DNA from: a virus | Lineage: Duplodnaviria > Caudoviricetes | DNA length: 64,000 bases | Virus record (IMG/VR): IMGVR_UViG_2936984999_000001 | Span: 32,001-96,000 of that record | Reading direction: 5' to 3' (one strand) | Shown: positions 11,726 through 32,809 of the stretch, in pieces | How the letters are laid out: each line of letters starts with the position of its first letter | Position numbering within the stretch: position 1 is the first letter of the stretch | Notes under the pieces: generated by a model | Told to the model about the DNA's origin: nothing | The model's input: the letters and a program-made list of their open reading frames with translations, nothing else | Database searches by the model: none | Position numbers and translations under genes: made by a program

Positions 11726-12004
11726 GATTGCGAAAAAAAAATTTTTGACCTTTGATAAAGCCAATAAAAATAAGGGTTTTTCAAAGGTGCAACAATTACC
11801 ACGTATAGGGAGAATAACGTGAAAGCACAGAGTTGTGTTAGTAGGCCCTCGCGCTATTGCCGAATGCGCGTTATAAATATGGGTTCGCGAATTAAAATGT
11901 ACAAACAGCTCACAGGGGTGAGGTGAGTGTATGGGTGACCATTCACAAATTGCGACTGCAGCTGGGCTAGGCTACGTAACTGGTCCAGTTGTGGTTTAAA
12001 TTGA

Positions 12005-12078
12005 CGCAGGATAGAGAAGTTTGGTATCTCGTCAGATTCATACTCTGAAGATCGGCAGTTCAAATCTGTCTCCTGCAA
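12005..12078 (+). tRNA. tRNA-Met(CAT), initiator-like
   Basis: Cloverleaf with C1:A72 mismatch, GCAGGA/TCCTGC acceptor, TCAGA-TTCATAC-TCTGA anticodon arm, TTCAAAT T loop; lacks the three G:C pairs of canonical fMet tRNA. Confidence 0.8.
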
Positions 12079-12115
12079 TTACTATCCTCTTCTACGAGGA
12101 AATTTAGAATGAAAG

Positions 12116-12301
12116 GTGTGTATTGTTATTAAAACAATTACAAAGGAGGGTATTCAGACCCTTATTGATAAGAAAATCTTAAAGCCATACTCAGGTGGGT
12201 ACATGAATTTCAGAGGATACCATGTGGGGTATTATAAAACCTGTGGAAACAAGAGGTATATTGAGGATTACTATGCAGATAGAGTGGAGAAATTAAAATA
12301 A
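12116..12301 (+). CDS. Small hypothetical protein
   Basis: ORF following GAAAGGTG RBS; real start may be ATT. Confidence 0.55.
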   Translation: MCIVIKTITKEGIQTLIDKKILKPYSGGYMNFRGYHVGYYKTCGNKRYIEDYYADRVEKLK

Positions 12302-12362
12302 GAAAAATACAACTGAATATATCGCATAAGGCGAAATACTTAAAGAAAGGTGGTTATTTACC

Positions 12363-13580
12363 ATCGAAACAAAAGTAAAATTTTATGATACAAATGCTGT
12401 TTTAGCATTACAAGAAAATGTATTAGATAGCTATTTTTACATTAGCTCTACTACCCTTCAAGAACTAGAGCATATTAAAGTATCAAGAAATAAAGATGAA
12501 GAAACAAAATATAAATCACGAAAGATTTTACATATCTTAGATGAAAATACTGACAAGTACAAAGTTGTTGTAACAGACAATTCTATCCTATCTATTATTG
12601 AATCAAAAGGTCTTGAAAATTCCCCAGATAATCAGATTTGTGCATGTGCTTCTACAATTGAAAATGCTATTTTTGTTACCAATGATCTTGCATGTAAAAC
12701 AATTGCTAAATGGATTTTTGAACTAGATGTTGAAAGTGCGACTGAAAATAATTTTGATTATTATAAAGGATACCAGGAAATAAGTCTGTCAGAAGAAAAG
12801 ATGGCTTATTTTTATGAACATCTTAATGAAAATACATTAAATCTTTTGATAAACGAATATGTACTGCTTAAGGATGAGAATGGAAATGAAGTAGATACAT
12901 TAAAATGGGATGGTGAAACTTATCAGTCAATTAGATGCAAGCCATTTAAATCTAATATGTTTGGGACATTAAAACCATTAGATAATATTCAGGCATTTGC
13001 AATGGATTCAATTAACACTAATGATATTACAGTATTATACGGTAAGGCTGGTTCAGGTAAAACTACTCTTCCGCTTAATTATATTATGCAAGAAATTGAA
13101 AAGGGTAGATTTAAAAAATGCTACATTATCTATTCTTATGAGCCATTAAAAAATGCAAAGACGCTTGGATTTGAAAAAGGTGATCATCTTACAAAGCTTC
13201 TTTATTATGGTTCTATTGGAAATATTCTTGCATCAAAATTTGGTGATATGCAGCAAGTAGAATATATGGTTGAGCGTGGAATGTTAGATATTATTCCAAC
13301 TGCAAATATACGAGGTATAGAACTTGAATCAGATAGTATTTGTCTTGTAACAGAATCACAGAACTTAGATGTTTATACTTTAAAAACAATAATTCAACGT
13401 TGTAAGTCTGGGTGCAAACAGATTTATGAGGGAGATATTATTGAACAGAAAGACACTAATATTCAAAATATCGGAATGAATAGACTTATTGACGTGTTCA
13501 AAGGTAACGAAAGTTTTGGATGTGTCAAATTGAAAAATAACTATAGATCAAAGCTTAGTGAGCTTGCAGATCTTATGTAA
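12363..13580 (+). CDS. phoH: PIN-domain + PhoH ATPase (PhoH2-like), probable ATC start
   Basis: Frame open from 12330; PIN motifs FYDTNAV, LQELE, DNQI, FVTND lie upstream of the tracked ATG; PhoH Walker A GKAGSGKT, IRG, ESQN, EGD..QKD. Confidence 0.85.
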   Translation: METKVKFYDTNAVLALQENVLDSYFYISSTTLQELEHIKVSRNKDEETKYKSRKILHILDENTDKYKVVVTDNSILSIIESKGLENSPDNQICACASTIENAIFVTNDLACKTIAKWIFELDVESATENNFDYYKGYQEISLSEEKMAYFYEHLNENTLNLLINEYVLLKDENGNEVDTLKWDGETYQSIRCKPFKSNMFGTLKPLDNIQAFAMDSINTNDITVLYGKAGSGKTTLPLNYIMQEIEKGRFKKCYIIYSYEPLKNAKTLGFEKGDHLTKLLYYGSIGNILASKFGDMQQVEYMVERGMLDIIPTANIRGIELESDSICLVTESQNLDVYTLKTIIQRCKSGCKQIYEGDIIEQKDTNIQNIGMNRLIDVFKGNESFGCVKLKNNYRSKLSELADLM

Positions 13581-13613
13581 TTAAAAAGACTAAAAGGAAA
13601 GCAGGTAAAACGT

Positions 13614-14234
13614 ATGGATATTTTACCATTATCCCTTGTTGGGACAACAAAAGAAAGTGATGTTCCTACTCCAGAAGAATATACCTACTGGGAGGATCGA
13701 AAAAATAGAACATTCTATATTGATTTTGAAATTGAAGAAGATTATGCATTAATTGAACTTGCAAAAATCATTATTCAGTTAAATATTGCCGAAAAAGATA
13801 TACCAACTTCCGAACTGCAGCCGATTCGCTTATTAATACACTCTTTCGGTGGAGATCTTGAACAGGCAAACTTCTTTGCAGATTTATGTATTGCTTCGCG
13901 CATTCCAATTATTACAGTTGCTATGGGAGTAGCTATGTCAGCAGGATTTATTATTTTTCTGTCCGGACATAAGAGATATGCATTTAAACATACTCAAATG
14001 ATGGTTCATTCTGGAAATGCATCATTTTCCGGTACTGCGGAACAAATTGATTCTGCACAGAAAAATTATAAGAAACAGATTGAGGATATGAAGTCTTATG
14101 TTCTTGAGCGTACATCTATTGATGAGAAAACTTTCAATAAAAATAGATCTAAAGACTGGTATCTCACTGAGGAAGAGCTGAAAAAATATAATGTTGTTGA
14201 TGAAATTATTTCTGATATTTCAGTTATATTTTAA
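13614..14234 (+). CDS. ClpP-like serine protease
   Basis: IHSFGG, AMSAG (catalytic Ser), MMVH (His), KDWYL motifs. Confidence 0.85.
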   Translation: MDILPLSLVGTTKESDVPTPEEYTYWEDRKNRTFYIDFEIEEDYALIELAKIIIQLNIAEKDIPTSELQPIRLLIHSFGGDLEQANFFADLCIASRIPIITVAMGVAMSAGFIIFLSGHKRYAFKHTQMMVHSGNASFSGTAEQIDSAQKNYKKQIEDMKSYVLERTSIDEKTFNKNRSKDWYLTEEELKKYNVVDEIISDISVIF

Positions 14235-14266
14235 AAAAATTTTATGAATAAAAGGAGAAGAAAAAA

Positions 14267-14503
14267 ATGAAGAGTTCACTTTCATTTAAACGTAATACAA
14301 CCGATAAATTATCTATTAAAGGAACACTTTCCGATGATTGTTCCACAATTACATATACAGATGAAAATGGTGACGAAAAAGAAATATTTGTTGTTGATCT
14401 TCTTAACGCCATGAAAAACCAGTATATTGAGATGACTGCTCAGATTAAAACTGAGGAAGAGTTAGATGTAATTCCTGCAGAGGATGCAGATAACGCAGAG
14501 TAG
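14267..14503 (+). CDS. Small acidic protein (YonK-like)
   Basis: Size and position before the phosphoesterase match SPbeta yonK-yonJ order; AAGGAG RBS. Confidence 0.55.
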   Translation: MKSSLSFKRNTTDKLSIKGTLSDDCSTITYTDENGDEKEIFVVDLLNAMKNQYIEMTAQIKTEEELDVIPAEDADNAE

Positions 14504-14513
14504 GTGATCGCCT

Positions 14514-15890
14514 ATGGATTTCGAAAAAAGAATAAGTGATTATGGAATGACACCTGAACAATACGAGGCTTCGTTTGCTGAAATAACTGCAAAAGTACAG
14601 GGAAACTCAGATAAAGATTGGACTGAAATTATTGATCAATATTCTATTCCACTATCTCGCAATACTCTTCGGAACGCTTGTAGCAATGTGTATGGCAGCG
14701 TATTCGTAAAAGAATATTTTGATGAAAAAAGAAGAAAAGAAATGGAAGTAAATAGTGAACCAATTACAGATGAACCGGCTCCTCTCTCACTTCCAAGATA
14801 TAAAGAACAGACAGACGTAAACAAAGATGGCTCTTTTACAAGTGATCGACTTATTGAGATTAATGAGGAAAACTTGAAAAATCCTGAATTTTTACTTAAC
14901 GCGCATGGTTATGACCCACTCGAATGGGAACTTGTCTCTGCAAGAAACTCTATTTGGAATCAGGGTGGAAAATCTGGTGTTAAAAATCTGTATGCAAGCA
15001 AAATCAATGTAAAACCTAGAACTGAAATTTCAATTACACTAAATAAAATAGAAGAATTTTTTAATAGACTTGATAGAAATTATTCTAAACCAAAAATATT
15101 AAAAAATAATTTTTATTTAGATGGTGATAAATTACTACTTGTTGACATTGCAGATCTTCATATGAATTTACAGGCAACATTGTTTTCCACTAATAATGAA
15201 TATAATTGTGAAATTGCAGAAAAATTATTTTTTTATGTTATTGAAGATATTTTATCTCGAACAGAAAAGTATAATTTTAAAGAAATTATTTTCTGTATTG
15301 GCGGAGATATGTTAAATGGAGATAACTTATCAGGTACCACCACTAAAGGAACACCGCAAAATAGTGATATTCATTATTATGATGCGTATGAAAAACTTTG
15401 TTCGATGGTAATAAAAGCAATTGATATATTAAAAGAAAGATGTAAAGTAAGTGTAATTTATGTAATGGGAAATCATGATGAATTAACTGGATTTAAGCTT
15501 GCAAAATATGTAGATGCTTGGTTTAGAGATGACAATAATGTAGAGGTTGATTATCAACCGCTTCCAAGAAAATACAAAGTATTTGGAAAAACATTATTCT
15601 GTTTTGCACACGATGGAGATATTAAAAAACTTCCAATGTTAATTGCAGATGAAGCAAGAGAATTTTGGTCTAAGGTTGATACTACAGAAGTGTTTTTACA
15701 ACATTTGCATACAGAACAAATTTTATTAGAAGATAATAATATAAGAATTCAAAGACTTCCAACTATTAGTGCGAAGTCTAAGTGGTCCAATGATAAAGGT
15801 TACTCTTCTAAGCGTCAATGTAAATCATTTATATTTGATTTTAATAATGGTCTGACTGATATCTTATATACCACAATTAAAAATGTATAA
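14514..15890 (+). CDS. Calcineurin-like metallophosphoesterase (YonJ-like)
   Basis: Motifs ADLH, GGDMLNGD, GNHD, FAHDG, QHLH. Confidence 0.85.
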   Translation: MDFEKRISDYGMTPEQYEASFAEITAKVQGNSDKDWTEIIDQYSIPLSRNTLRNACSNVYGSVFVKEYFDEKRRKEMEVNSEPITDEPAPLSLPRYKEQTDVNKDGSFTSDRLIEINEENLKNPEFLLNAHGYDPLEWELVSARNSIWNQGGKSGVKNLYASKINVKPRTEISITLNKIEEFFNRLDRNYSKPKILKNNFYLDGDKLLLVDIADLHMNLQATLFSTNNEYNCEIAEKLFFYVIEDILSRTEKYNFKEIIFCIGGDMLNGDNLSGTTTKGTPQNSDIHYYDAYEKLCSMVIKAIDILKERCKVSVIYVMGNHDELTGFKLAKYVDAWFRDDNNVEVDYQPLPRKYKVFGKTLFCFAHDGDIKKLPMLIADEAREFWSKVDTTEVFLQHLHTEQILLEDNNIRIQRLPTISAKSKWSNDKGYSSKRQCKSFIFDFNNGLTDILYTTIKNV

Positions 15891-17001
15891 ATTTTATAAA
15901 TATAGAATATATCCAAACAAAATCCAGGAAGAAGTTATTCAAAAAACTTTTGGATGTGTAAGATTTGTTTATAATCAAACTCTGTCTTACAGGAAGGAAA
16001 AATACAATAAAGATAAGGTTTCTGTTGGTAGAATTGATTGTAACAATTGGAAAAATCAATATTTAAAAAAGAAATATCCTTGGTTATCAGAAGTTGATAA
16101 ATTTGCATTAGATAATGCAGTTATAAATATGGATATGGCTTATCAACGATTTTTCAAATTAAATAAAGGTTTTCCTAGATTTAAAACAAAAAAAGATTTT
16201 AGAAAAACATACAAAACTAATTGTAATCATATTAATACACGACCAACAATTAGGCTTGATTTTGAACATAAAAAAATAAAGCTACCAAAGCTTGGATGGG
16301 TAAATGTAAAAAATCATAGAAACTTCTTGGGAATAATAAAATCTGCAGTAGTTTCTCAAAATCCATCTGGAAAATATTTTGTATCAGTTCTTATTGAAAC
16401 AGAACATCATCCATTAGATTCAACTGGATCTGTAATAGGTATTGATTTAGGCATTAAAGATTTACTTATCACTTCTGATGGAGAAAAATTCGAAAATATT
16501 CAAACCACTAAAAAATATGCGGATAAACTTGCTAAAGAACAGCGCAAATTGGCTCATAAAGTAAAAGGAAGTAGTAACTACAATAAACAAAGAATTAAAG
16601 TAGCAAGAATATATGAAAAAATCCATAATACCAGAATTGATAATTTACACAAAATTTCTCATAAATTAATTAGCGAAAACCAAGTAATAGTTTCTGAGGA
16701 TTTAAATGTAAATGATATGGTAAAAAATCATAGTCTTGCAAAATCTATATATGATTGTAGCTGGTATGAATTAACAAGACAGCTTTCTTATAAAGCTAAT
16801 TGGAATAATCGTCAATATGTTAAAGTTGATAGATATTTTCCATCAAGCCAATTGTGTCATGTATGTGGATATCAGAATAGTGATACAAAAGATTTGACCG
16901 TTCGAGATTGGATTTGTCCAAAATGTGACACACATCATGATAGAGATATTAATGCTGCTATTAATATTCGTAATGAAGGACTAAAAATTTTAAATATGTA
17001 A
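15883..17001 (+). CDS. tnpB: RNA-guided endonuclease TnpB (IS200/IS605 OrfB), no tnpA nearby
   Basis: YKYRIYPN, FGCVRFVYN, RuvC GIDLG / SEDL / DRDINAAINI, zinc finger CHVC..CPKC. Confidence 0.95.
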   Translation: MYKFYKYRIYPNKIQEEVIQKTFGCVRFVYNQTLSYRKEKYNKDKVSVGRIDCNNWKNQYLKKKYPWLSEVDKFALDNAVINMDMAYQRFFKLNKGFPRFKTKKDFRKTYKTNCNHINTRPTIRLDFEHKKIKLPKLGWVNVKNHRNFLGIIKSAVVSQNPSGKYFVSVLIETEHHPLDSTGSVIGIDLGIKDLLITSDGEKFENIQTTKKYADKLAKEQRKLAHKVKGSSNYNKQRIKVARIYEKIHNTRIDNLHKISHKLISENQVIVSEDLNVNDMVKNHSLAKSIYDCSWYELTRQLSYKANWNNRQYVKVDRYFPSSQLCHVCGYQNSDTKDLTVRDWICPKCDTHHDRDINAAINIRNEGLKILNM

Positions 17002-17123
17002 ATGAATATTTTAGTACGGTAGGAATTACCGGAATTTACGCCTGTGGAGTTAGTAGGTTACGAGGACGTTGAAACAGGAATTTGTTTTTAAACAATATTT
17101 CACGACAACTGGACACATGAACC
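17002..17123 (+). ncRNA. Putative TnpB omegaRNA (scaffold to TTCAC at 17099-17103, then guide)
   Basis: Typical IS605 right-end sequence ACGGTAGGAATTACCGGAATTTACGCCTGTGGAG...GAAACAGGAA..TTCAC; the 5' boundary probably extends into the tnpB ORF. Confidence 0.7.
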
Positions 17124-17214
17124 CGGATTTGTTGGTGCTGTAAGAAAATGCATTTGTTTCATTTGGGACAAAGAAAAAGGTCTTAAAGGAACTACTAATA
17201 TTGTTATTGACTGA
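17104..17214 (+). pseudogene. Orphan C-terminal fragment of a second metallophosphoesterase allele
   Basis: Translates to DNWTHEPGFVGAVRKCICFIWDKEKGLKGTTNIVID*, which aligns by eye with the resident C-terminus SKWSNDKGYSSKRQCKSFIFDFNNGLTDILYTTI. Confidence 0.75.
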
Positions 17215-17328
17215 TGAAAATCAGTTCGAACATAGACAACTGAATAACATGCCGAGCGTGGCGGACCCACGTATAAATAAAAACAATAAAATTATAAAAA
17301 TTTAAATGATCAAAGGAGTAACAAAATT

Positions 17329-17601
17329 ATGACTAAAACTGAACTTATTAAAGCAACAGCAACTAAAGCAGAGAAGACAATTAAGGAGACTGGTGATATC
17401 GTAGCAGCTCTTCAGGAAGTTATCATGGAGACACTGAAAGCTGGTGAGGATATTAGAGTACCTGGATTTGGAAGCCTTGAGGTTAAGGATGTAGCTGGAA
17501 GAAAAGGCCGCAATCCGCTCACTGGGGAAGACCTGATGATTAAACCTCATAAAACTGTTAAGGCAAAACTGGCAAAAGCTGTAAAGGATGCTGCTAGATA
17601 A
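17329..17601 (+). CDS. hup: HU family DNA-binding protein
   Basis: MTKTELIKA..., GFGSLEV, RKGRNPLTGE. Confidence 0.95.
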   Translation: MTKTELIKATATKAEKTIKETGDIVAALQEVIMETLKAGEDIRVPGFGSLEVKDVAGRKGRNPLTGEDLMIKPHKTVKAKLAKAVKDAAR

Positions 17602-17804
17602 ATAGAATTTTTCATTTTTTGATAAACCACAGGGCTGTAATGGTCCTGTGGATACTATAAAATCGTTATTTTATGTGATGTGATTTGCCGTGAGGCAATT
17701 ACTTTTTTCGCTCATTATTATAAAACTCTCTGAAGAGGTGATGGTTAGTGCTGTCATCTCACATAAGATAACGAAATATTTTGATAAAAGGAAGTGATGA
17801 AGAA

Positions 17805-18761
17805 ATGGCAGTTGAACGAAGTAAACCTATATTATTATATGACGCAAAAAAAGCTAAACAGGTTAATCCGGAAACATTAAGATTGTTTCAAAAATATCAA
17901 ATTGATATGTCAATTAGAGACCTATCAGAAAAGACAATTAGGGGTTATAATTCTGATTTAATGCAGTGGTTCATTTATATGTATAATAACCAATTTAATC
18001 TATCTGTTCTTGAAGCAAAAGAAGAAGATCTTGAAGAATATTATTTCTGGAGAAAACAGCAAGGTAATAATGTTAATCGTCAGAAACGTGTCATGTCTTC
18101 TATTTCCGCTTTCTATAAATTTCTTCGTAAGAAAAAACTCATTACAGAATCCCCAATGGAATTTATTGATAGACCAAAACAAGGACAACCTGTTGTTGTA
18201 CAAACTTATTTAAAAAAGGAAGAAGTGCAATTTATGAGAGAAAAACTTTCTGAATATGGTGATGTTCAGTTACAGGTTTATGCTTTTTTATCTCTCACTA
18301 CAATGGCCAGAGTTAATGCAATTGCTCATTTGAAATGGGATCAAATCAATATGGAAGAACGTATTTGCTCTGATGTGCTTGAAAAAGAAGGTAAAATTGT
18401 AGAGCTTTCATTTAGTGAAGAAACTCGCGATTATATGAATGAATTACGTAAATATAGAGAAGACAATAATATAGATGATTATGGTTGGGTGTTCAAAACG
18501 GCTTATACAAATGAGAAACAATGTGTAAGTAATGATACTCTAAATGAATGGTGTAAAAAAATTGGTAATATGATTGGGCATCCTACATTACATTGTCATG
18601 ATTGGAGACATAGCTATGCTAGTCTGCTTAAGGAAAATGGGGCAAGTTTAGAAGATGTTTCAGAAATGCTTAATCATGCAGGAACTGATGTTACTAAGAA
18701 ATATTACATAAAGGTAGATCATTCTAAGGTTAGAAAAATTAAGGATTCAATCAAAATTTAA
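17805..18761 (+). CDS. Tyrosine recombinase (XerC/D-like)
   Basis: SAM-like N-terminus, catalytic R (TMARVN), HDWRH, LNH and Tyr (KKYY); ATG at 17805 after RBS. Confidence 0.9.
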   Translation: MAVERSKPILLYDAKKAKQVNPETLRLFQKYQIDMSIRDLSEKTIRGYNSDLMQWFIYMYNNQFNLSVLEAKEEDLEEYYFWRKQQGNNVNRQKRVMSSISAFYKFLRKKKLITESPMEFIDRPKQGQPVVVQTYLKKEEVQFMREKLSEYGDVQLQVYAFLSLTTMARVNAIAHLKWDQINMEERICSDVLEKEGKIVELSFSEETRDYMNELRKYREDNNIDDYGWVFKTAYTNEKQCVSNDTLNEWCKKIGNMIGHPTLHCHDWRHSYASLLKENGASLEDVSEMLNHAGTDVTKKYYIKVDHSKVRKIKDSIKI

Positions 18762-19070
18762 TTTAGAAGTACATAATAGAGAAGGTAACACTTTTGATAT
18801 TGACCATCTTAGTTTATGGTCCAACATAACATTTTTGAATTTCTGTGGAATAACAGAGTATTACGACTGTTATCTTCTCTTCTATTATATTTGTTCTGTG
18901 GTGGAACATTTTATTCCCAAGACGCTTGCGACATCAGGTAGGTAAGAAGAGGCTGAAAAGCGGGGATTTGTTCTGGAAGTCTGCACCAGTACCTGATAAA
19001 CAATAAATGTAGTCTAAAAAACAAAGAGGCAGCTACAAAAGTAACTGCCCATTGCCGATGAGATAGTCTT

Positions 19071-19268
19071 TTATTGACAATCATCATCTAATACGCTTGC
19101 AAAGTTCACAGCAAATTCTGCGTTAACCTTATCGGCATTAACAGAGATTGTGAGGCTTTGCGGATTATTATTAAAAATCATCCACAGTGCAGCGATTATA
19201 ATTATAGTAAAACAAAGAAGTCGGATCGCTAACTTTGCAAGCTTAAGCTTGTTGTGTTCCCTTCTCAT
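19071..19268 (-). CDS. Small single-pass membrane protein, antisense moron (type I toxin-like architecture)
   Basis: AGGAGGTGA RBS; hydrophobic LAIRLLCFTIIIIAALWMIF; own promoter TTGTAT-17-CATAAT near 19457-19485; hairpin at 19028-19049. Confidence 0.65.
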   Translation of the reverse strand: MRREHNKLKLAKLAIRLLCFTIIIIAALWMIFNNNPQSLTISVNADKVNAEFAVNFASVLDDDCQ

Positions 19269-19773
19269 ATTTCACCTCCTTCCTAGCTATAAAGTAGCTA
19301 ACTGGTTCAGAGGGGAATATGTGAGCAGAACGCCCAGAATCATATAGACTTCTGATGTGAATGCACCGATCCTTTCCGGTCTTATCTTAAATGCCAGGTG
19401 CTATGTCAATAAGTTACAGTGTATCGGAGTAGTTGAAGTACTCTTCTACATTCTCTATTATGATTCTGAAACATAAAAAATACAAGTCAGAACTCATGTT
19501 TTGATTATTTCGCCCAAAGTAGAAATACTTTGCTATACAGATAAGGAGCGTCTGTCATCGGAGAGAGTAACGACTGAAAAGTGAATGCTCTTGTGTGTAG
19601 CCGATGTAAAATAATCCGTGATTCATCATACAGCGTTTAGGCTGGAACCTTCCGACTGGGCGGAAGCAAATAATACTCTTCCTGATTTATTCAGGATAGC
19701 TGGCGGACAGCGAAATAACTACGCAATTACATAAATGCGCTTCGTAATGTGCGGCAAAGAAACATTGCAATCT

Positions 19774-19864
19774 GGCAGGTATAGCTTAATTGGTAAAGCG
19801 TCATATTCAAATTCTGGAAAACATACAAATGAAGACTCCAGGTTCGAGTCCTGGTACACTGCCC
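19774..19864 (+). ncRNA. tRNA-like RNA with enlarged (~24 nt) anticodon loop
   Basis: TAGCTTAATTGGTAAAGC D arm, CCAGG-TTCGAGT-CCTGG T arm, bulged acceptor GGCAG-GTA/TAC-A-CTGCC, TCAT/ATGA stem. Confidence 0.65.
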
Positions 19865-19900
19865 TACAACTCAATTTTTATTGAGTATAAAATTTTATTT

Positions 19901-19982
19901 GGATGGATAGCGAAGTGGTTAAACGCTCCTGACTGTAAATCAGGCGGCTCTGCCTTCGAAGGTTCGAATCCTTCTCCATCCA
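19901..19982 (+). tRNA. tRNA-Tyr(GTA)
   Basis: GGATGGA/TCCATCC acceptor, CCTGA-CTGTAAA-TCAGG anticodon arm, long variable arm, GGTTCGAATCC. Confidence 0.95.
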
Positions 19983-20080
19983 CTAAATAGGACTACTGTC
20001 CTATTCTATTATTCTTCTCTTTTCTTTGTATTTTTCATTTTCATGATTATTTCTCCAAGCTGGGCTTCGGTCCAGCGTCT

Positions 20081-31705: not shown

Positions 31706-32809
31706 ATGAGAAAATTATTATTTGCTGAATATACTGATTTAAATCAGGCAAAATTTAAAGATGCAAAAGATATTAGAACTTTTACAAAAATTTGTATTGA
31801 TACATATAATGGTACACTTCAGAACCAGTCTGTAGCAGATGCCAATACTGTAATTAGAACAAAATTTAGAGAAATTGCAGGACTTTCCGAGGATGCAACT
31901 GATAATCAGATTAAACGTGCATTAGGAAGAACTGCAGTAAGAGAAGCATTATTCGAGATTATTGAGGATACAATTGATGATACATTGGTAACAGGTTGGT
32001 CAGCAGATCCATTCTTCAGAAAATATGTTGATTTTAAGAATACAACAATCGGAGAGAAAAACAGTTTCTATATTAAAGATGATTGTATTCTTACTGTAGC
32101 AAAACTTTCTGGTGGACAGCACGCAATTGAACGTCAGAGACTTGGCGCTGGACAGACTCGTACAGTTAGTACAAGCTACTTTGGATTAGGCGTATACATG
32201 AGTCTTCTTAGATTTATGCAGGGCGTTGAAGATTGGAACGAACTGATTAACAAAATTACAGAGGCATTTGATCGTTATGTAAATACAATGCTTCATGATG
32301 CTGTTATGTCTGCATCTCAGCAGCTTCCAGTTCCTACAAAATGGAATATCAAAGGTGAAGCTAAAGCTGAAAATAGAGCAAAGCTGAAAAGACTTATCTC
32401 TGACGTGCAGCTTGCTACCGGTTCTAAGGCAGTAATTATGGGTACTGAAGTAGCTCTTGGAGAACTTCAGAACTTTGGTAATGTACAGTGGATTTCTAAT
32501 GAAGCAAAATCTGATATTTATAGAATGGGTCGTCTTGGATCATTCGAGGGAACAGAGATTGTAGAGATTCCACAGGCATTTGCTTACAATGATGTTGAGC
32601 ACTATCTGGAAGATGATAAGAAACTTCTGGTTATGCCTAATAACATTGATAAGTTCGTTAAGTTCGTTTATGAAGGTTCTGATGCAACATTTGAAAGAAA
32701 CGAAATGGGCGAGACTGGCGATGAAACAAAAGATTACCGTATTAGAACTTGCATGGGTCTTGAGACAATGACTAATGTACGTTTTGGTACATGGACTCTT
32801 GAGGCGTAA
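31706..32809 (+). CDS. Major capsid protein
   Basis: 367 aa, strong RBS, position, IERQRLG and GRLGSFEGTEIVEIP motifs as in SPbeta-like capsids. Confidence 0.8.
   Translation: MRKLLFAEYTDLNQAKFKDAKDIRTFTKICIDTYNGTLQNQSVADANTVIRTKFREIAGLSEDATDNQIKRALGRTAVREALFEIIEDTIDDTLVTGWSADPFFRKYVDFKNTTIGEKNSFYIKDDCILTVAKLSGGQHAIERQRLGAGQTRTVSTSYFGLGVYMSLLRFMQGVEDWNELINKITEAFDRYVNTMLHDAVMSASQQLPVPTKWNIKGEAKAENRAKLKRLISDVQLATGSKAVIMGTEVALGELQNFGNVQWISNEAKSDIYRMGRLGSFEGTEIVEIPQAFAYNDVEHYLEDDKKLLVMPNNIDKFVKFVYEGSDATFERNEMGETGDETKDYRIRTCMGLETMTNVRFGTWTLEA

Follow-up and report, generated by a model that had tools for sequence, protein, structure and literature searches.

A free-standing TnpB in an uncultured phage as a candidate RNA-guided homing cassette beside the displaced end of its neighboring gene

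What does a TnpB nuclease do in a phage genome when the left end and the transposase of its transposon are gone? TnpB is the ancestor of Cas12, and its established function is retention of the transposon that encodes it. The question is raised by a tnpB gene in a window of 64,000 nucleotides (nt; positions 32,001 to 96,000 of the IMG/VR record IMGVR_UViG_2936984999_000001; coordinates given without another name count from the first base of this window). There, tnpB stands between a putative exonuclease gene and a second, displaced end of such a gene. The record is 122.8 kb long, about 55% complete by the CheckV estimate, and derives from a large, uncultured, gut-type phage; the window is AT-rich, with a G+C fraction (GC) of 0.33. 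From comparison of this locus with its relatives, we consider it probable that the segment at 15883-17214 descends from an IS200/IS605 element of the ISDra2 kind and has become a free-standing RNA-guided homing cassette, which would make it an RNA-guided version of intronless homing.

The nuclease gene is intact and has been kept under selection. Its product contains the HTH_OrfB_IS605 (PF12323), OrfB_IS605 (PF01385) and Cas12f1-like_TNB (PF07282) domains and aligned end to end with the ISDra2 TnpB structures 8bf8 and 8exa (E 4e-82; 3.7e-82 for 8bf8). The RuvC motifs GIDLG (D188), SEDL (E272) and DRDINAA (D355) are all present, which agrees with the D-E-D residues noticed when this DNA was first read from its letters alone (hereafter, the sequence-only reading), and the CxxC..CxxC zinc finger is kept as well (CHVCG/CPKCD). 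This is the only tnpB on the 122.8-kb contig, and a search of that incomplete contig for a Y1 transposase (PF01797) found none. Canonical relatives have a left end in which some 13-20 nt separate TTGAA from TCGCAATCC and a hairpin; at the window cassette no left end with a hairpin is present, and the tnpB start codon lies instead 8 nt inside the exonuclease gene. The sequence-only reading had likewise reported neither a tnpA nor a recognizable left end. With no left end, no TnpA-type palindromes and no transposase, the element is not an intact member of the IS200/IS605 family. The left-end-less TnpBs, from the window and from a sister cassette at another gene of these phages (gene Y, described below), form one clade (support 98/94). 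The dN/dS of tnpB was 0.24-0.31 between the window and gene Y cassettes and 0.08 inside the Y-type lineage, which indicates that purifying selection persisted after the left end was lost.

The gene in front of tnpB is a chimera of two alleles. It encodes 458 amino acids (aa; 14514-15890), contains a Metallophos domain and matches PHROG 704, annotated as a DNA repair exonuclease. Seventeen related loci were retrieved with this protein, 11 of which make up group A and six group B, and the affinities of the two domains are reversed between these groups. Residues 1-170 are 97-99% identical to those of group A (91% for L015), and the catalytic domain is only 34% identical; against group B, the catalytic domain is 71-74% identical and the N-terminal domain about 40%. 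The nearest relatives of the catalytic domain, an allele that we call b', were found in two loci without tnpB (L092 and L093; 95% aa and 93% nt identity). The GC falls from 0.355 in the N-terminal domain to 0.265 in the catalytic domain at 15031/15032, so that the shift to AT-richer sequence first seen by eye near 15020 can now be placed exactly. DNA homology to all 11 group A relatives ends at 15031 and restarts exactly at 17104, the first base past the TnpB right end TTCAC. Therefore, 2,072 bp (15032-17103) replace 745 bp of the native allele. The coincidence of the group A homology borders with the TnpB right end is far beyond chance. On the left, the native a1 haplotype of the N-terminal domain is kept in the window to within 15 nt of the heterology border.

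Despite the replacement, the gene remains complete, and the native end that it lost is still at hand. The tnpB start codon takes the place of the last four or so codons of the tnpB-free allele, in which ..PIKRKDI and a stop become ..TIKNV and a stop. The sequence-only reading had claimed an intact metallophosphoesterase gene overlapping the tnpB start, an orphan C-terminus of 36 codons directly after TTCAC, and a resident allele that the guide does not match. All of this was borne out: the overlap is 8 nt, the orphan is 92-94% identical to the native gene ends of group A, and the resident exonuclease allele agrees with the guide at only nine of its first 16 positions, with mismatches at the other seven. 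The features of the locus are listed in Table 1.

Table 1. Coordinates of the cassette, its neighboring gene and the unoccupied gene Y site in the window
Feature	Position	Strand	Basis
N-terminal domain of the phosphoesterase/DNA repair exonuclease gene, native a1 type	14514..15031	+	99.4% aa and 97-100% nt identity to group A loci L017/L019
Metallophos catalytic domain, divergent AT-rich allele b', complete to the stop	15032..15890	+	GC 0.265; 7/16 guide mismatches
tnpB, 372 aa, intact putative RNA-guided nuclease gene	15883..17001	+	Pfam and PDB matches, catalytic motifs
Predicted omegaRNA scaffold (5' limit approximate), overlapping the 3' end of tnpB and stopping at the right end	16906..17103	+	Conserved over 33 distinct family members
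AT-only mini-hairpin TTGTTT-TT-AAACAA with a 6-bp stem, replacing the GC-rich subterminal palindrome	17082..17095	+	Right-end alignment
Right-end terminal TTCAC	17099..17103	+	Kept in almost every one of the 60 loci, with divergent flanks directly behind it
Predicted guide segment, first 20 nt of the flank	17104..17123	+	Position by ISDra2 biology
Orphan 36-codon 3' end and stop of a native a-type allele; would double as right homology arm	17104..17214	+	92-94% aa identity to group A gene ends (11 relatives)
Unoccupied, guide-resistant gene Y site	12261..12301	+	TTGAG (12261-12265), then the last 11 codons and stop of gene Y

The position of the guide follows from the position of the right end. 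With a 28-nt motif taken from behind tnpB, we recovered 60 omegaRNA loci from IMG/VR, in which the scaffold is conserved and the canonical right end consists of ...GAAGCAAGAAGCC, a GC-rich imperfect hairpin and then TAGTTCAC. The sequences past TTCAC are unrelated between these 60 loci, which indicates that the element ends at TTCAC and that the guide begins at 17104. Two stems of the predicted omegaRNA are backed by compensatory changes (CGGUA/UACCG versus CGAUA/UAUCG, and GCCUG/CAGG versus GCUUG/CAAG), and an RNA of this kind, with its guide read from the flank, fits the layout of TnpB-type elements. The weak AT-rich stem to which the subterminal hairpin had been said to be reduced was recovered as the 6-bp stem at 17082-17095. 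Rfam scans of positions 12000-20000 and of one further carrier, L086, returned tRNAs only and no omegaRNA or intron family.

The motif on the other side of the junction could be read from the family itself. The canonical left flanks end in TTGAA (TCGAA once), and L021, the empty site of the element in L027, reads TTGAG followed by TATAAAGG. Together with the re-joined right ends and gene Y described below, these sites point to TTGAN as the motif of the family, which is close to the TTGAT of ISDra2.

The same arrangement was found at two further genes. The sequence-only reading had named, as an outcome that would count against it, a single insertion with no recurrent linkage of tnpB to an allele; the layout does recur. 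The first case is gene Y, a small gene (12116-12301 in the window) at whose end, 3.4 kb upstream of the site of the window cassette, a tnpB element 79% identical to the window's is present in L015, L016, L085, L087 and L088, the last three from a metagenome scan. This cassette has no left end and is a simple insertion after TTGAG. Its left side consists of a divergent copy of the last 11 codons (..DYYADLVNKIK and a stop), 11 nt and the tnpB ATG, and the native end (DWYADKAEKLK and a stop) lies directly past TTCAC on its right side. The tnpB-free alleles of gene Y read TTGAA or TTGAG at the junction, and in eight of the 11 tnpB-free group A genomes the site is TTGAA followed by GATTGGTACGCTGATAAGG. 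The gene Y guide, GACTGGTACGCTGATAAAG, matches this common target at 15 of 16 positions, and the sole mismatch is at position 3. The cassette's own resident copy matches the guide at 10/16, and a second allele of gene Y, in the window and in L019, has six mismatches in 16. In IMG/VR, the recoded resident end of gene Y occurs only together with tnpB.

Gene Y encodes 61 aa, has no Pfam or PHROG match and lies just after a tRNA gene. Its C-terminal motif (G)YYKTCGNKRYIED recurs in genes beside other TnpB insertion sites (L021 and L027), and could be a DNA-binding tail from a homing endonuclease that has degenerated.

The second case involves L051 and L083, whose TnpB is the deepest branch of the set and whose right end reads GGTTCAA (L051:2654-4820, minus strand as stored). 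Here, an integrase-like gene ends in ..NLGLNVIKKYFEVEKEKYVKRL and a stop that overlap the start of tnpB, and the flank past the right end reads LGYDVIKKYYNIEREKYLRSRSRH and a stop, so that tnpB has a spare gene end of 24 codons on its upstream side and the native end on the other. ATGAA stands directly before the resident copy. Local alignment of the resident and orphan ends scored 68, against a maximum of 41 in a null set of mismatched pairs from different loci. Thus the order of spare gene end, tnpB, omegaRNA and displaced native end is seen at three genes and in two TnpB lineages.

We also considered a junction three bases further to the right, with TTCACGAC as the right end, because the guides of both left-end-less cassettes begin with GAC and the corresponding alleles with GAT. 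A right end of TTCACGAC was rejected because the TTCAC junction yields a perfect TTGAA/TTGAG motif at gene Y. The three bases are a curiosity of their own: the guides start with GAC at 17104-17106 of the window and at 3743-3745 of L015, every tnpB-free allele at both loci has GAT, and the difference is an Asp wobble at guide position 3. Synonymous escape at a seed position, an ancestral state and a requirement of the element are all possible.

In two comparisons of carriers, the cassettes are more alike than their flanks. The window-type carriers comprise seven contigs (the window, L086 and L094-L098) from at least six samples; metagenomes with carriers include ERZ17862979, ERZ17862992, ERR537007/8 and ERZ28565548. 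The window's exonuclease belongs to a 99% cluster of 84 members, and every further contig fetched from it (L094-L097) has tnpB, as do L086 and L098; the 11 group A loci, the six group B loci and L092/L093 are tnpB-free at the exonuclease site. The carriers have one of two right-flank backgrounds, which are told apart by the presence or absence of a pRha/ANT gene between the genes for HU and the integrase. Between the window and L086, tnpB and the omegaRNA have no differences in 1,221 nt, and the flanks are 96-98% identical. At gene Y, the cassettes of L015 and L016 are 98.9-100% identical, the 500 nt next to them are 90.4% identical on the left and 95.4% on the right, and the flank haplotypes differ up to 13 nt from the motif. 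Across these comparisons, the switch points lie within 15 nt of the heterology border on the left and 19-85 nt from it on the right.

The sharpest footprint was obtained from carriers L094/L096 and the tnpB-free L012/L018, which differ by five mismatches in 3,523 nt counted from the right-end junction. The mismatches are at guide positions 3, 11, 12, 15 and 19, and the next 3,504 nt are without any; by our own arithmetic, the chance that all five fall within guide positions 1-19 is (19/3523)^5, or about 5e-12. This confinement places the switch from cassette to recipient at the distal end of the protospacer, which coincides with the zone in which ISDra2 TnpB cuts, 15-21 bp from its motif. The position of the switch fits the trace that repair would be expected to leave if the break lay at the target or upstream of it. 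An ordinary crossover is hard to invoke here because it needs homology on both sides.

The first 295 nt of L086 and the first 427 nt of L098 were weighed as independent left junctions and rejected as probable assembly chimeras. In both contigs (L086:1-295 and L098:1-427), unrelated DNA is joined inside the exonuclease catalytic domain. The joins involve AT-rich runs and contig starts or an N-containing scaffold, and of the two joined segments one is GC-richer and non-coding and the other is a glycosyltransferase-like open reading frame (ORF). The segment joined in L086 had no intron match in Rfam; an intron or another insertion before GDNLSG is possible there.

These observations suggest how the cassette might be expressed and copied. 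Translation of TnpB would be coupled to that of the exonuclease gene, and the omegaRNA would be released from the tnpB transcript at its 3' end, with the first 16-20 nt or so of the displaced native exonuclease end as its guide. During co-infection, the a-type allele of a relative would be cut 15-21 bp downstream of the motif, and the cassette-bearing genome would then serve as the template for repair of the break. The orphan gene end and the DNA downstream of it would be the right homology arm. The left arm would be the conserved N-terminal domain, since the two catalytic domains lack shared DNA homology. Repair would copy in the whole block of divergent catalytic domain, tnpB and omegaRNA, the gene would remain functional, and the converted genome, with a resident allele that the guide does not match, would thereby be immune.

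Several results weigh against this reading, and most concern the targets of the window guide. The guide has homologous near-matches inside the intact exonuclease genes of tnpB-free relatives, as the sequence-only reading had anticipated, but no perfect one: the best alleles (L014 and L017) match at 14/16, with mismatches at positions 3 and 10, the commonest a-type allele has four mismatches in 16, and all 11 a-type alleles mismatch at position 3. An exact search of IMG/VR with the guide, in which positions 3 and 19 were set to Y, gave zero matches. The consistent adjacent motif that had been expected 5' of the target is also not that of the family, being GCGAG or GTGAG (G[CT]GAG) in group A alleles and not TTGAN. 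No peak of diversity was found at the protospacer among tnpB-free alleles (rank 198 of 1,091 windows), and because this diversity is unexceptional, we do not claim an arms race. With a mismatch at position 3 throughout and an odd motif, the window cassette may have few cleavable targets left, or it may tolerate these departures; ISDra2 TnpB is able to cleave matching single-stranded DNA without a motif. For L051, a search for an empty site retrieved none. The relative youth of the cassettes could reflect general recombination, as these phages are highly mosaic.

A further difficulty is that the chimeric allele is also found where tnpB is absent: in L092, L093 and five further clusters, an a-type N-terminal domain (a2, as in L015) is fused to b' at the same border, which indicates that the chimera is a standing allele and not a cargo that tnpB built. 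The sequence-only reading had counted a cut-resistant catalytic domain as part of the tnpB cassette, and that part of it did not survive. For the same reason, we rejected a simple transposon with the catalytic domain as its cargo; 745 bp of the native allele are gone in any case, and the left junction is in the register of the gene. In L092 and L093, the slot that tnpB occupies in the window is taken by a 244-aa gene with GIY-YIG and NUMOD3 domains, which starts 2 nt after the exonuclease stop (L092:6374-7108 and L093:2335-3069) and encodes a bona fide Seg-like free-standing homing endonuclease. In group A phages, the slot is empty. The junction between the exonuclease and HU genes therefore appears as a homing hot spot with three states, namely empty, occupied by a protein endonuclease and occupied by TnpB. 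The breakpoint at 15031 may then be a footprint of the GIY-YIG element, and that element or ordinary recombination may explain the left border and the linkage to the catalytic domain better than TnpB does.

Three other accounts of the locus need to be set against homing. In one, it is a fossil: an IS200/IS605 element landed once in an a-type gene, 36 codons short of its end, the gene was mended by illegitimate recombination with a b' allele, and the left end was deleted. The cassette would be immobile, TnpB kept by inertia or for some other use, and the shared haplotypes the product of ordinary phage recombination. This would explain why the window guide has no perfect target and a non-canonical motif, why the chimeric allele is independent of tnpB, and why the window TnpB sits on a long terminal branch (0.39), and the strong mosaicism of the phages favors it too. 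It is difficult, however, to reconcile a single mended insertion with an architecture shared by three unrelated genes and two TnpB lineages, or inertia with purifying selection after the loss of the left end. Near-perfect targets of the gene Y guide beside TTGAA are moreover common, two independent comparisons show a cassette younger than its flanks, and the difference between carriers and tnpB-free genomes is limited to guide positions 1-19. We regard the fossil as unlikely.

The two remaining accounts accept that something cuts but assign it a different part. TnpB and its guide may form a weapon of competitor exclusion that destroys co-infecting a-type genomes in the manner of a one-spacer anti-phage system, with conversion as an occasional by-product. 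Such a weapon has the same requirements as homing (an intact nuclease, a guide against the rival allele and an immune resident), and motif-free cutting of single-stranded DNA, as by ISDra2 TnpB, would ease the problem of the motif in replicating phage DNA. Nonetheless, the several flank backgrounds with switch points at the cassette borders indicate that the cassette is copied and not merely used, and homing and exclusion are mutually compatible; exclusion as the main function seems to us improbable. Alternatively, the AT-rich catalytic allele may have been spread by the Seg-like GIY-YIG enzyme of L092/L093 or by another nuclease, with tnpB as a secondary hitch-hiker. The GIY-YIG/NUMOD3 gene does occupy the same slot behind the same type of allele, and the border at 15031 is common to tnpB-free and tnpB-bearing alleles of differing N-domain subtypes. 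However, no GIY-YIG gene is present at the locus in window-type carriers, the right end of TnpB itself forms the right border, the switch between carrier and tnpB-free sequence lies inside the guide, and neither the gene Y nor the L051 cassette has a neighbor of this kind, so that we give this account very little credence. The homing of the sequence-only reading thus stands with respect to its architecture, the non-matching resident allele, near-match targets, recurrence and footprints, and falls short on a perfect target, a canonical motif and a co-evolved cargo.

The arrangement most likely originated when a right end was joined 3' of a TTGAN-like site by a transposase acting in trans, beside a divergent allele that already existed. 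Every right junction is found 3' of a TTGAN-like site, which points to the chemistry of transposase-mediated right-end joining. The spare gene end, we infer, must have derived by recombination from a divergent allele.

A related cluster suggests that right ends may be moved again. In loci with a fragment of a PhoH gene (L080, L062, L056 and about 20 sister loci), 5 kb on the left side are collinear and identical in all, and the right ends are joined at 0, +169 and +274 nt into a 5'-truncated PhoH gene. Both re-joined positions lie after TTGAC or TTGAG in the undeleted version. This looks like a series of deletions adjacent to the right end that redirect the guide. Within about 5 kb upstream (9.5 kb in L066), neither an intact PhoH gene nor a resident paralogue of the PhoH orphan was present. 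In the same cluster, the region upstream of tnpB contains a small divergent gene that has an operator-like GTGATA repeat and may encode an Arc-type repressor.

Taking these loci together, we put forward a broader proposal, tentatively and in the belief that it is slightly more apt to fail than to hold, that phages harbor a natural RNA-guided cleave-and-rescue gene drive. It would have evolved repeatedly (at least three genes and two TnpB lineages) when an IS605-type element exchanged its left end for a spare gene end that resists the guide, and the native end that was displaced became both guide and homology arm. Such a drive could be re-aimed by re-joining of the right end 3' of other TTGAN sites, as in the PhoH-fragment cluster, and the exonuclease and gene Y drives would segregate in one population with sensitive, resistant and protein-endonuclease-occupied alleles.

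The surroundings of the cassette are variable. Genes for PhoH, a ClpP-type protease, the HU protein, an integrase and tRNAs lie near the locus. Group A relatives vary in the presence of PhoH and ClpP (12301-14230 in the window), and the neighborhood is strongly mosaic. The pRha/ANT gene, of about 900 bp, is likewise present or absent between the HU and integrase genes, as seen at the 17685/17627 junction when the window is compared with L012, L018, L086 and L094. In INPHARED, no relative of the locus was found; the only matches were to distant tnpB genes, for example those of Lak megaphages and Clostridium phage c-st.

The locus and its relatives offer a concrete natural system, open to testing, whose RNA-guided nuclease appears to have adopted the lifestyle of a free-standing homing endonuclease. 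They suggest a route from a transposon to a drive that is costless for its carrier by virtue of the spare gene end, and in which the guide is a relic of the target. They also provide natural material for the study of motif and mismatch tolerance of TnpB, of resistance alleles against RNA-guided drives and of gene mosaicism in phages.

The closest known systems each share a part of this arrangement. The cassette is like the IS200/IS605 TnpB-omegaRNA system of ISDra2 in the sequence of its nuclease, in the omegaRNA at its right end, in a guide taken from the 3' flank and in its motif (TTGAN versus TTGAT). Without a left end, hairpins and a transposase it would not undergo peel-and-paste transposition, unlike ISDra2. 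It also lies inside the 3' end of a gene with a divergent replacement end upstream, and its proposed target is a rival allele in another phage genome rather than the vacated donor site on a sister chromosome. The logic of TnpB-driven homing, in which an element-free copy is cut and repaired from an element-bearing one, is the same. That homing is described in a "restorative" form, which follows excision, and a "non-restorative" form, which has been shown for plasmids. Homing by TnpB between phages is treated as theoretical in a 2026 review, and transposase-independent spread of TnpB has been reported for plasmids (PMC13565253). Our search of the literature found no description of this TnpB arrangement in phages. 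IStrons, in which an IS605-type element is combined with a group I intron, likewise let a TnpB element sit in a gene without destroying it (PMC10690162). They restore the gene by RNA splicing, whereas the window cassette does so with a spare gene end at the level of DNA, and Rfam detected no intron at the locus.

In layout, the nearest counterparts are the fungal mitochondrial mORFs with a foreign C-terminus, known from atp6 of Allomyces macrogynus and from atp6, atp9, cox2 and nad3 of Glomus (PMC3630166). Their organization is identical, with a gene core, a divergent C-terminus, a free-standing endonuclease ORF and the displaced native C-terminus as an untranslated orphan, and in them as here the native end is nearly identical to that of relatives and the inserted end divergent (PMC3630166). 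An in-frame divergent C-terminus, an endonuclease ORF and a displaced native C-terminus were found together at the window locus and at two others. The host of the mORFs is a mitochondrion and that of the window cassette a bacteriophage genome; mORF nucleases (LAGLIDADG and GIY-YIG) read DNA through protein, whereas the nuclease of the window is predicted to be guided by RNA, with the displaced native end as its guide. In behavior, the cassette may be likened, from its sequence, to SegF, SegB and MobE of the T-even phages, nucleases that lie between conserved genes and cut the cognate region of co-infecting relatives. In such intronless homing, sequence differences protect the genome of the phage that carries the nuclease, markers in the flanks are co-converted and localized marker exclusion results. 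The specificity of the window cassette would differ from that of Seg and Mob enzymes in residing in a 16-20-nt RNA guide and a short motif instead of protein contacts, and its guide would be a physical remnant of the target. What appears to be new here is an RNA-guided nuclease that has a displaced gene end as its predicted guide.

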